Source: Candidatus Poseidoniaceae archaeon
Lineage (GTDB): Archaea; Thermoplasmatota; Poseidoniia; Poseidoniales; Poseidoniaceae
DNA: 60,332 nt
Reading direction: 5' to 3'
Assembly (NCBI GenBank): GCA_049606035.1
Contig: JBMYVD010000006.1
Location: 1 to 60,332, forward strand
This document shows positions 43,319 to 43,369 of the stretch, in pieces (the stretch's first letter is position 1; each line of letters starts with the position of its first letter). The notes under the pieces were generated by a model. The model did not search any database and was not told the DNA's origin. It was given only the letters and a program-made list of their open reading frames with translations. The translations under genes and the position numbers were made by a program.

Positions 43319-43334
43319 TTTAGGTTGCCCGAAA
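43319..43334. promoter_or_regulatory. DtxR/MntR-type operator, proximal (TTTAGG-TTGC-CCGAAA)
   Basis: Near-palindrome with 1 mismatch, 13-28 bp upstream of the transferrin-like ATG. Confidence 0.65.
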
Positions 43335-43342
43335 AGAGTAGA

Positions 43343-43351
43343 GTATATATT
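43343..43351 (-). promoter_or_regulatory. Probable TATA box (AATATATAC) of the ABC operon
   Basis: Alternating TA run about 40 bp upstream of ATG 43306, between the two operators. Confidence 0.55.
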
Positions 43352-43369
43352 TTTTAGGCTGCCCTAAAA
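43352..43369. promoter_or_regulatory. DtxR/MntR-type operator, distal (TTTTAGG-CTGC-CCTAAAA)
   Basis: Perfect 7-4-7 inverted repeat with TTAGG-N4-CCTAA core. Confidence 0.72.

Follow-up and report, generated by a model that had tools for sequence, protein, structure and literature searches.

The tandem palindromes located in front of a transferrin-like transporter operon in this Marine Group II (Poseidoniales) genome are very probably operators for the genome's single DtxR-family regulator, a metal-sensing protein of the TroR type whose iron-loaded dimer would repress the operon. The window, by which we mean the whole stretch of 60,332 nucleotides that was analysed, is contig C6 of a 1.74-Mb, 45% G+C, 109-contig assembly that is 83% complete (genome label G000). 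Support for the DtxR-operator reading came from the presence of a DtxR gene, the conservation of the boxes, a regulon of iron-related genes and the identity of the boxes with the TroR box. From the sequence we infer that the regulator binds the boxes, that Fe2+ is the effector, that transcription starts at the predicted position and that binding leads to repression.

The palindromes TTTAGGTTGCCCGAAA at 43319-43334 and TTTTAGGCTGCCCTAAAA at 43352-43369 were both read directly from the sequence, and the letters and coordinates given for them in the initial annotation proved exact when checked on both strands. Their centres at 43326.5 and 43360.5 are 34 bp apart as had been claimed, and a TATA-like element does stand between the two boxes on the minus strand. 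The distal (upstream) site is a perfect 7-4-7 palindrome, and the proximal (downstream) site is a 6-4-6 palindrome with a single arm mismatch (A to C). The features of the region, ordered from upstream to downstream on the minus strand, are as follows.

43387..44190, minus strand: upstream co-directional gene encoding a 267-aa predicted membrane protein, its stop codon 17 nt before the distal operator
43352..43369, no strand assigned: distal operator TTTTAGG-CTGC-CCTAAAA, centre 54 nt upstream of the ATG; 25.9 bits, the best match in the genome
43342..43351, minus strand: TATA-like element AATATATACT, read from the sequence; AATATATAC is the minus-strand reading of 43343-43351
43319..43334, no strand assigned: proximal operator TTTAGG-TTGC-CCGAAA, centre 20 nt upstream of the ATG; 21.6 bits
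43312..43316, minus strand: putative Shine-Dalgarno-like AGGTG, 6 nt upstream of the ATG
42110..43306, minus strand: transferrin-like binding protein, 398 aa, with a lipobox-like N-terminus; first gene of the putatively regulated operon
41351..42106, minus strand: ABC transporter ATPase (Pfam ABC_tran, 7.9e-31); best NCBIfam match PhnC, below cut-off
40419..41396, minus strand: ABC permease of the PhnE type (NCBIfam PhnE equivalog, 218.9 bits against a cut-off of 216.7; Pfam BPD_transp_1)

Read along the minus strand, the stop codon of the upstream gene is followed by 17 nt, the distal box (TTTTAGG-GCAG-CCTAAAA) and directly by the TATA-like element AATATATAC, after which come seven bases, the proximal box (TTTCGG-GCAA-CCTAAA), AGGTG, six bases and the ATG. 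Both sites fall within the 80-bp gap (43307-43386) that separates two minus-strand ORFs, and the promoter would therefore serve the gene starting at 43306. In archaeal promoters the TATA element is located about 26 nt upstream of the transcription start, with the BRE adjoining it on the upstream side. With this geometry the distal operator, which abuts the TATA-like element, would cover the BRE position. The start is predicted, from TATA geometry only, to lie near 43320, which would place the proximal box at about -14 to +2 around it. The 267-aa membrane protein matched no Pfam or NCBIfam family, and its gene is not itself preceded by a box in G000. In many of the relatives the C-terminal coding end of this gene is located ahead of the box-controlled binding-protein or Fea1 gene.

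The pattern TTTAGGNNNNCCNAAA was matched three times in the window against 0.04 matches expected, and none of 100 shuffles reached three. A matrix of 22 columns was constructed from 44 distinct sites, all of them in relatives and none in the genome of the window. Three matches of at least 20 bits were returned when the 1.74-Mb genome was scanned, including the two sites of the window (25.9 and 21.6 bits) and a third at C1:49965 (22.7 bits), and the next-best match in G000 scored 12.2 bits. Thirty first-order Markov genomes contained a mean of 0.03 matches at this threshold. A chance origin of the sites is excluded. The regulon visible in G000 is tiny, consisting of three sites of which the sole strong one outside the window is located at a ferredoxin promoter. 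Two other pattern matches in G000, at C6:24057 (below 10 bits) and C18:10734 (10.6 bits), were taken as chance on their score. The looser pattern TTAGGNNNNCCTAA showed no excess over a reversed control in most of 61 genomes (4 versus 4 in G000), indicating that what distinguishes the boxes is their flanks, G/C-rich centre and position rather than raw counts. Counts of TTAGGNNNNCCTAA, which lacked enrichment, were dropped as a statistic for the flank-aware matrix combined with position.

A homologue of the binding protein was present in 41 of the 61 genomes of the same order, G000 included. Thirty homologue loci were taken in and three of these were without a gene start, so that 27 could be evaluated. 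Recurrence of the motif upstream of orthologues had been put forward as a check on the initial annotation, and a site of at least 14 bits was located within 200 nt upstream of the gene at all 27 loci, a count with some circularity, since these promoters supplied the matrix. Two or more sites occurred at 20 of the 27 loci, and in sixteen of these twenty a pair was spaced 33-35 bp apart. In the orthologous promoters inspected, an A/T-rich TATA-like element directly followed the distal box and the proximal box preceded the ribosome-binding site. The arms TTTAGG and CCTAAA were nearly invariant and the four central bases varied. The distal box of one locus (L009) was broken by an N in the assembly. 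A third box further upstream was present about 25 bp from the distal box at L005 and L013 and 58 bp from it at L027.

Four RNA-library runs from one study gave assembled contigs over the binding-protein gene, which show no start, strand or level. One contig, from a diverged relative, extended across the gap that separates the binding-protein gene from the gene upstream, and could represent read-through transcription or carried-over DNA. The seawater RNA-library contigs carried T to C changes at 43326, in the variable centre of the proximal box, and at 43339, between this box and the TATA-like element. The arms were intact in these variants.

One DtxR-family gene is present in G000 (C1:54313-54972), encoding a protein of 219 aa about 4.3 kb from the ferredoxin box. 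The initial annotation had proposed a search of the genome for such a gene, having stated that none is encoded in the window, and both points held since the sole DtxR-family gene is on contig C1. Its domains PF01325 (1.1e-18) and PF02742 (7.1e-19) each matched one gene in the genome. PF02742 was detected in 55 of the 61 related genomes and in 20 of the 21 high-quality ones. Five of the six genomes without a match are 55-77% complete, and the remaining high-quality genome encodes an N-terminal fragment at a contig end that was recovered by a search with the G000 protein. That search covered five of the six negative genomes (G032, 60% complete, was left out) and yielded no DtxR regulator in the four others, which are 55-77% complete. 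Fur (PF01475) was not found in G000 and was matched in only two of the 61 genomes, both of one other genus. The boxes were not classed as Fur boxes, no Fur-family regulator having been found in G000. In genus g1 the DtxR gene shares a contig with the ferredoxin and flavodoxin boxes and is no more than about 9 kb away from them. A search by matrix scan for autoregulation gave no box near the DtxR gene in G000.

The closest known counterpart is TroR of Haloferax volcanii, which Martinez-Pastor et al. (Nucleic Acids Res 2023/24, PMC10783522) describe as a DtxR-family factor characterised by ChIP-seq, RNA-seq and promoter mutagenesis. The ChIP-seq motif given there is TTTAGGC-NNN-CCTAAAANAN. At the siderophore promoter tandem boxes are located about 30 bp apart, either of which is enough for iron-dependent repression, and TroR activates dpsA (PMC10783522). 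The sites in the window match TTTAGGC-NNN-CCTAAA in sequence, are arranged in tandem about three helical turns apart around a core promoter, and occur in a genome with a DtxR regulator and in a lineage where boxes are conserved at metal-homeostasis promoters. Likeness to TroR as described in that work extends to the DtxR family of the regulator, to a box of TTTAGG, a short G/C-rich centre and CCTAAA, to tandem placement about 30-36 bp apart, to iron-uptake promoters, and to an activating role, at dpsA in Haloferax and possibly at ferredoxin in the marine lineage.

The marine matrix was applied to 35 kb of pHV3 (67% G+C), where only four places scored above 6 bits (22.9, 20.8, 21.4 and 11.5). 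All four were located in the two gaps that precede the siderophore genes and the binding-protein gene next to them. The two in front of the binding-protein gene were spaced 36 bp apart and enclosed an A/T-rich stretch, which is the layout of the pair in the window. As the boxes on pHV3 were matched in both sequence and spacing, the box type and its layout are already known, and what is new is the lineage and the cargo. The system described here belongs to Poseidoniales (Marine Group II) rather than Halobacteria, its genes encode a transferrin-like ABC importer, Fea1-like proteins and flavodoxin whereas siderophore genes are controlled in Haloferax, and G000 has one DtxR paralogue compared to three in Haloferax volcanii. 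No siderophore gene was among the box-linked genes examined. The term TroR-type is used here for the marine regulator on the basis of the box and the DtxR family and not of orthology (TroR versus Idr versus SirR).

The DtxR family offers two further comparisons. The classical actinobacterial DtxR/IdeR iron box is a 19-bp palindrome with 9-1-9 symmetry. The marine sites share with it the arm words TTAGG and CCTAA, a regulator with the same two Pfam domains and, as proposed, metal-dependent repression at iron-uptake promoters. In contrast, the marine box has even symmetry (6-4-6 or 7-4-7, 16-18 bp) and is placed on an archaeal promoter with TATA and BRE elements, where the actinobacterial box acts on -10/-35 elements. 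The even symmetry and 4-bp centre within 16-18 bp led us not to file the sites under the classical bacterial DtxR/IdeR box. The initial annotation had assigned the palindromes broadly to the DtxR/IdeR/MntR/SirR type; this stands for the box of the archaeal DtxR-family TroR and falls for the classical 9-1-9 box. The MDR1 protein of Archaeoglobus fulgidus, in work ascribed to Bell et al. in 1999, is reportedly a DtxR-family metal-dependent repressor that blocks polymerase recruitment. Like the marine regulator it is an archaeal DtxR-family protein, and it reportedly has multiple operators around the transcription start of an operon for an ABC transporter. Its operators are reported to be downstream of the TATA element, where one marine box is on the BRE side, and its gene to be co-transcribed with the transporter, where the marine regulator is encoded elsewhere.

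A literature search found no paper joining Poseidoniales, iron and DtxR, although supplements and Leyn and Rodionov 2015 could contain related motifs. None of the papers listed for Marine Group II, flavodoxin and iron dealt with this subject, going by their titles and the beginnings of their abstracts. The matches in the Halobacterium network paper (PMC5737653) were confined to its reference list and gave no motif text.

The first gene of the operon encodes a protein that matched the Pfam Transferrin family (8.7e-17) slightly better than Phosphonate-bd (2.4e-15) and whose best solved relatives are lactoferrins and transferrins (2.9e-19). Its score against the NCBIfam PhnD model was far below the cut-off (27 versus 261 bits). 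The binding protein is thus nearer to transferrin and lactoferrin than to PhnD, although the permease is a PhnE equivalog. The iron ligands of transferrin, which we take to be Asp, Tyr, Tyr and His, and the carbonate-site residues, presumably Thr and Arg, were assigned to alignment columns on that assumption. In alignments with transferrins, Glu93 occupied the Asp position, Tyr122, Tyr222 and His281 the Tyr, Tyr and His positions, and Thr159 and Lys163 the positions of the carbonate-site Thr and Arg. Across 32 homologues from relatives the Asp column contained D or E in 30 (two gaps), the first Tyr column Y in 31 (one gap), the second Y in all 32, and the His column H in 29 (three gaps). The Thr column was T in all 32 and the Arg column K in 26 and G in six. 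Because of the transferrin likeness and the conserved ligand columns in the 32 homologues, the cargo is most likely ferric iron and the 398-aa protein the Fe3+ binding subunit. Such operons, which are likely to be annotated as phosphonate transporters, look likely to be ferric-iron importers, as the set of box-marked genes also argues.

The transferrin-like gene was tandemly duplicated at L007, L008, L010 and L013 (genomes G036, G024, G002 and G011). The duplicate copies were about 50% and about 80-90% identical to the protein of the window and shared one long open frame. A single promoter of two or three boxes was located in front of the duplicated genes.

The initial annotation had expected a scan for the motif to lead to metal genes, and in relatives it led to flavodoxin, Fea1, a ZIP fusion, ferredoxin and hemA. 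All 27 pattern matches of four relatives (G019, G027, G028 and G033) were examined, for which 25 regions were fetched while two matches fell in a locus already covered. The fetched regions contained 26 sites of at least 20 bits; by a longest-ORF criterion 22 of these were strictly intergenic, and the other four fell no more than 65 nt into the longest possible ORF. Four of the 25 fetched pattern matches looked like chance, three with scores below 12 bits and one of 13.4 bits inside a 920-aa ORF. Genes downstream of the sites included a stand-alone flavodoxin divergent from a zinc-dehydrogenase-like gene, a 91-aa ferredoxin, M28-peptidase genes one of which is fused to a ZIP domain, glutamyl-tRNA reductase (hemA), a glycerol-3-phosphate dehydrogenase and phosphodiesterase pair, a thrombospondin-repeat protein and small uncharacterised proteins. 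Two genes for Fea1, a low iron-inducible periplasmic protein, were also downstream of sites, one with two boxes 34 bp apart.

The Fea1-related lipoprotein genes are located at L068 1266-2036 (G028) and L080 3-908 (G019) and matched Pfam Fea1. Their match to NCBIfam FEA1_rel_lipo (2.7e-54) was below the cut-off. They have a two-box promoter and occupy the same slot after the 267-aa gene as the transferrin-like gene of the window.

Three tests, on flavodoxin, ferredoxin and the Haloferax sequence, are free of the matrix circularity noted above. For stand-alone flavodoxin a box was located 44-77 nt upstream in 11 of 11 orthologues of at least 71% identity, ten of them scoring at least 22 bits and one 15.9 bits. 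Among more distant stand-alone copies a box was present in one of two, 202 nt upstream, and no site of at least 15 bits occurred in the roughly 58 kb covering 17 loci whose flavodoxin domain is part of a fused gene. For ferredoxin a box of at least 17 bits was located 70-75 nt upstream at 17 of 30 loci, all 17 in the window's genus, with one further locus carrying a 14-bit site; in the sister family, represented by three loci, no box was present. The centre of the ferredoxin box is 34 bp upstream of the centre of a TATA-like element.

The ferredoxin-promoter box of G000 (C1:49969-49982; L003 5970-5983) carries the 14-mer core of the distal box in the opposite orientation and overlaps the stop codon of an upstream RNA_binding-domain gene. 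In several congeners one arm of the ferredoxin box has decayed to CCTGAAA. Searching the 83%-complete assembly of G000 by tblastn recovered neither Fea1 nor the M28-ZIP fusion nor the syntenic stand-alone flavodoxin, and the only flavodoxin find was a 41%-identical fused domain on C12 without a box. The zinc-dehydrogenase-like gene, which in relatives is separated from the divergent flavodoxin by a box, is present in G000 (C1:45253-46696; L003 1251-2696; 86% identity) with neither a neighbouring flavodoxin nor a box.

The sequence of the regulator is ambiguous with regard to its metal. Its best solved relatives include IdeR and DtxR. At the metal-site positions of IdeR, which we take to be Met10, His79, Glu83, His98, Cys102, Glu105 and His106, the regulator keeps the last six and has Glu in place of Met10. 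No NCBIfam subfamily model reached its cut-off; the best-scoring was a Thermococcales MntR model (96 versus 350 bits). One source labels homologues as Mn-dependent. The metal is thus not fixed by sequence, and the preference for iron over manganese comes from the content of the regulon. That the same regulator and boxes respond instead to Mn2+ (or Zn2+), with an operon for another metal or for phosphonate, is improbable. The Glu stands at a position presumably occupied by Met in DtxR/IdeR and Asp in MntR, and together with the MntR model as top match (below cut-off) and the Mn-dependent label it would suit such an effector, as would the ZIP fusion in the regulon of relatives, while the permease passing the PhnE equivalog cut-off would suit phosphonate. 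Against this, flavodoxin, Fea1-like proteins, ferredoxin and hemA are textbook iron-status genes, the box is that of the iron-responsive TroR, and the equivalent of Cys102, typical of iron sensors, is kept. Moreover, the binding protein retains the transferrin Tyr, Tyr and His columns with an acidic residue at the Asp position, and its PhnD score (27 versus 261 bits) argues against phosphonate as cargo.

Less probable still, at a level we consider very low, is that the boxes are bound by a regulator of another family and the DtxR gene is unrelated to them. The link between protein and site comes from sequence, no box is present at the regulator gene, and the work on Haloferax records an ArsR-type factor that interacts genetically with troR (PMC10783522), all of which leaves room for such a factor. 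On the other hand, the box matches one that the same work reports as validated by ChIP-seq and mutagenesis for the DtxR-family TroR, G000 has a single DtxR-family gene with Fur not found, and the DtxR gene of genus g1 is within about 9 kb of the ferredoxin and flavodoxin boxes.

Least credible of all is a role at the RNA level, with the palindromes forming hairpins (a terminator for the co-directional gene upstream, or a leader structure) instead of serving as DNA operators. The distal palindrome folds to -6.3 kcal/mol (z-score -2.2) 17 nt past the stop codon of the upstream gene, and the ferredoxin-locus box overlaps such a stop with a T run after it, but the proximal site folds no better than shuffles (z -0.7), arms that are invariant across an order around a variable centre are the opposite of stem covariation, the box is found in either orientation and also in divergent promoters without an upstream co-directional gene (for example flavodoxin/dehydrogenase), and no RNA role would account for a fixed 33-35 bp pairing around the TATA element. 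This reading was rejected for the weak folding and for arms that are conserved in sequence rather than compensating.

Under the operator reading, the metal-loaded dimer would bind both boxes when iron is sufficient. The distal box at the BRE, directly upstream of the TATA element, should then exclude TFB/TBP, and the proximal box over the predicted start should exclude RNA polymerase. Under iron scarcity the apo-protein would leave and the operon would be transcribed to give a transferrin-like lipoprotein and a PhnC/PhnE-type ABC importer, most likely for ferric-iron uptake.

A box about 34 bp upstream of the TATA centre is in a position typical of archaeal activators. The ferredoxin box is located upstream of its TATA element in parallel to TroR at dpsA, which suggests activation without proving it. 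Together with the flavodoxin boxes this suggests a flavodoxin-off, ferredoxin-on switch under iron sufficiency. A broader proposal, which we put forward as tentative and as rather less probable than not to hold in full, is an iron-sparing switch under one TroR-type regulator in which box position determines the response, combined with a genuine prokaryotic transferrin as the binding subunit of a PhnC/PhnE-type importer. In such a switch, plentiful iron would lead to repression of the uptake genes and the stand-alone flavodoxin through boxes on the BRE/TATA region and the start. It would also turn on the gene for the 91-aa ferredoxin through a box centred 34 bp before its TATA element, in the way that TroR activates dpsA.

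If this proposal is true, the so-called phosphonate transporters of Marine Group II would import ferric iron and be extant relatives of the lineage thought to be ancestral to transferrin and phytotransferrin; the transferrin-like gene occupies the genomic slot that a Fea1/phytotransferrin-like lipoprotein has in sister genomes. The box would then also define, from sequence only, a set of iron-stress markers for an uncultured group that is abundant worldwide. The operator pair itself is ordinary, with a known sequence and layout, and its value is in the genes that it marks. Marine Group II is abundant in the surface ocean and has no cultured member, so that the boxes are among the few routes to its iron-responsive genes. 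The box-marked genes, which include the transferrin-like importer and, in relatives, the Fea1-like, flavodoxin, ZIP-fusion and ferredoxin genes, are candidate iron-stress markers for metatranscriptomes.
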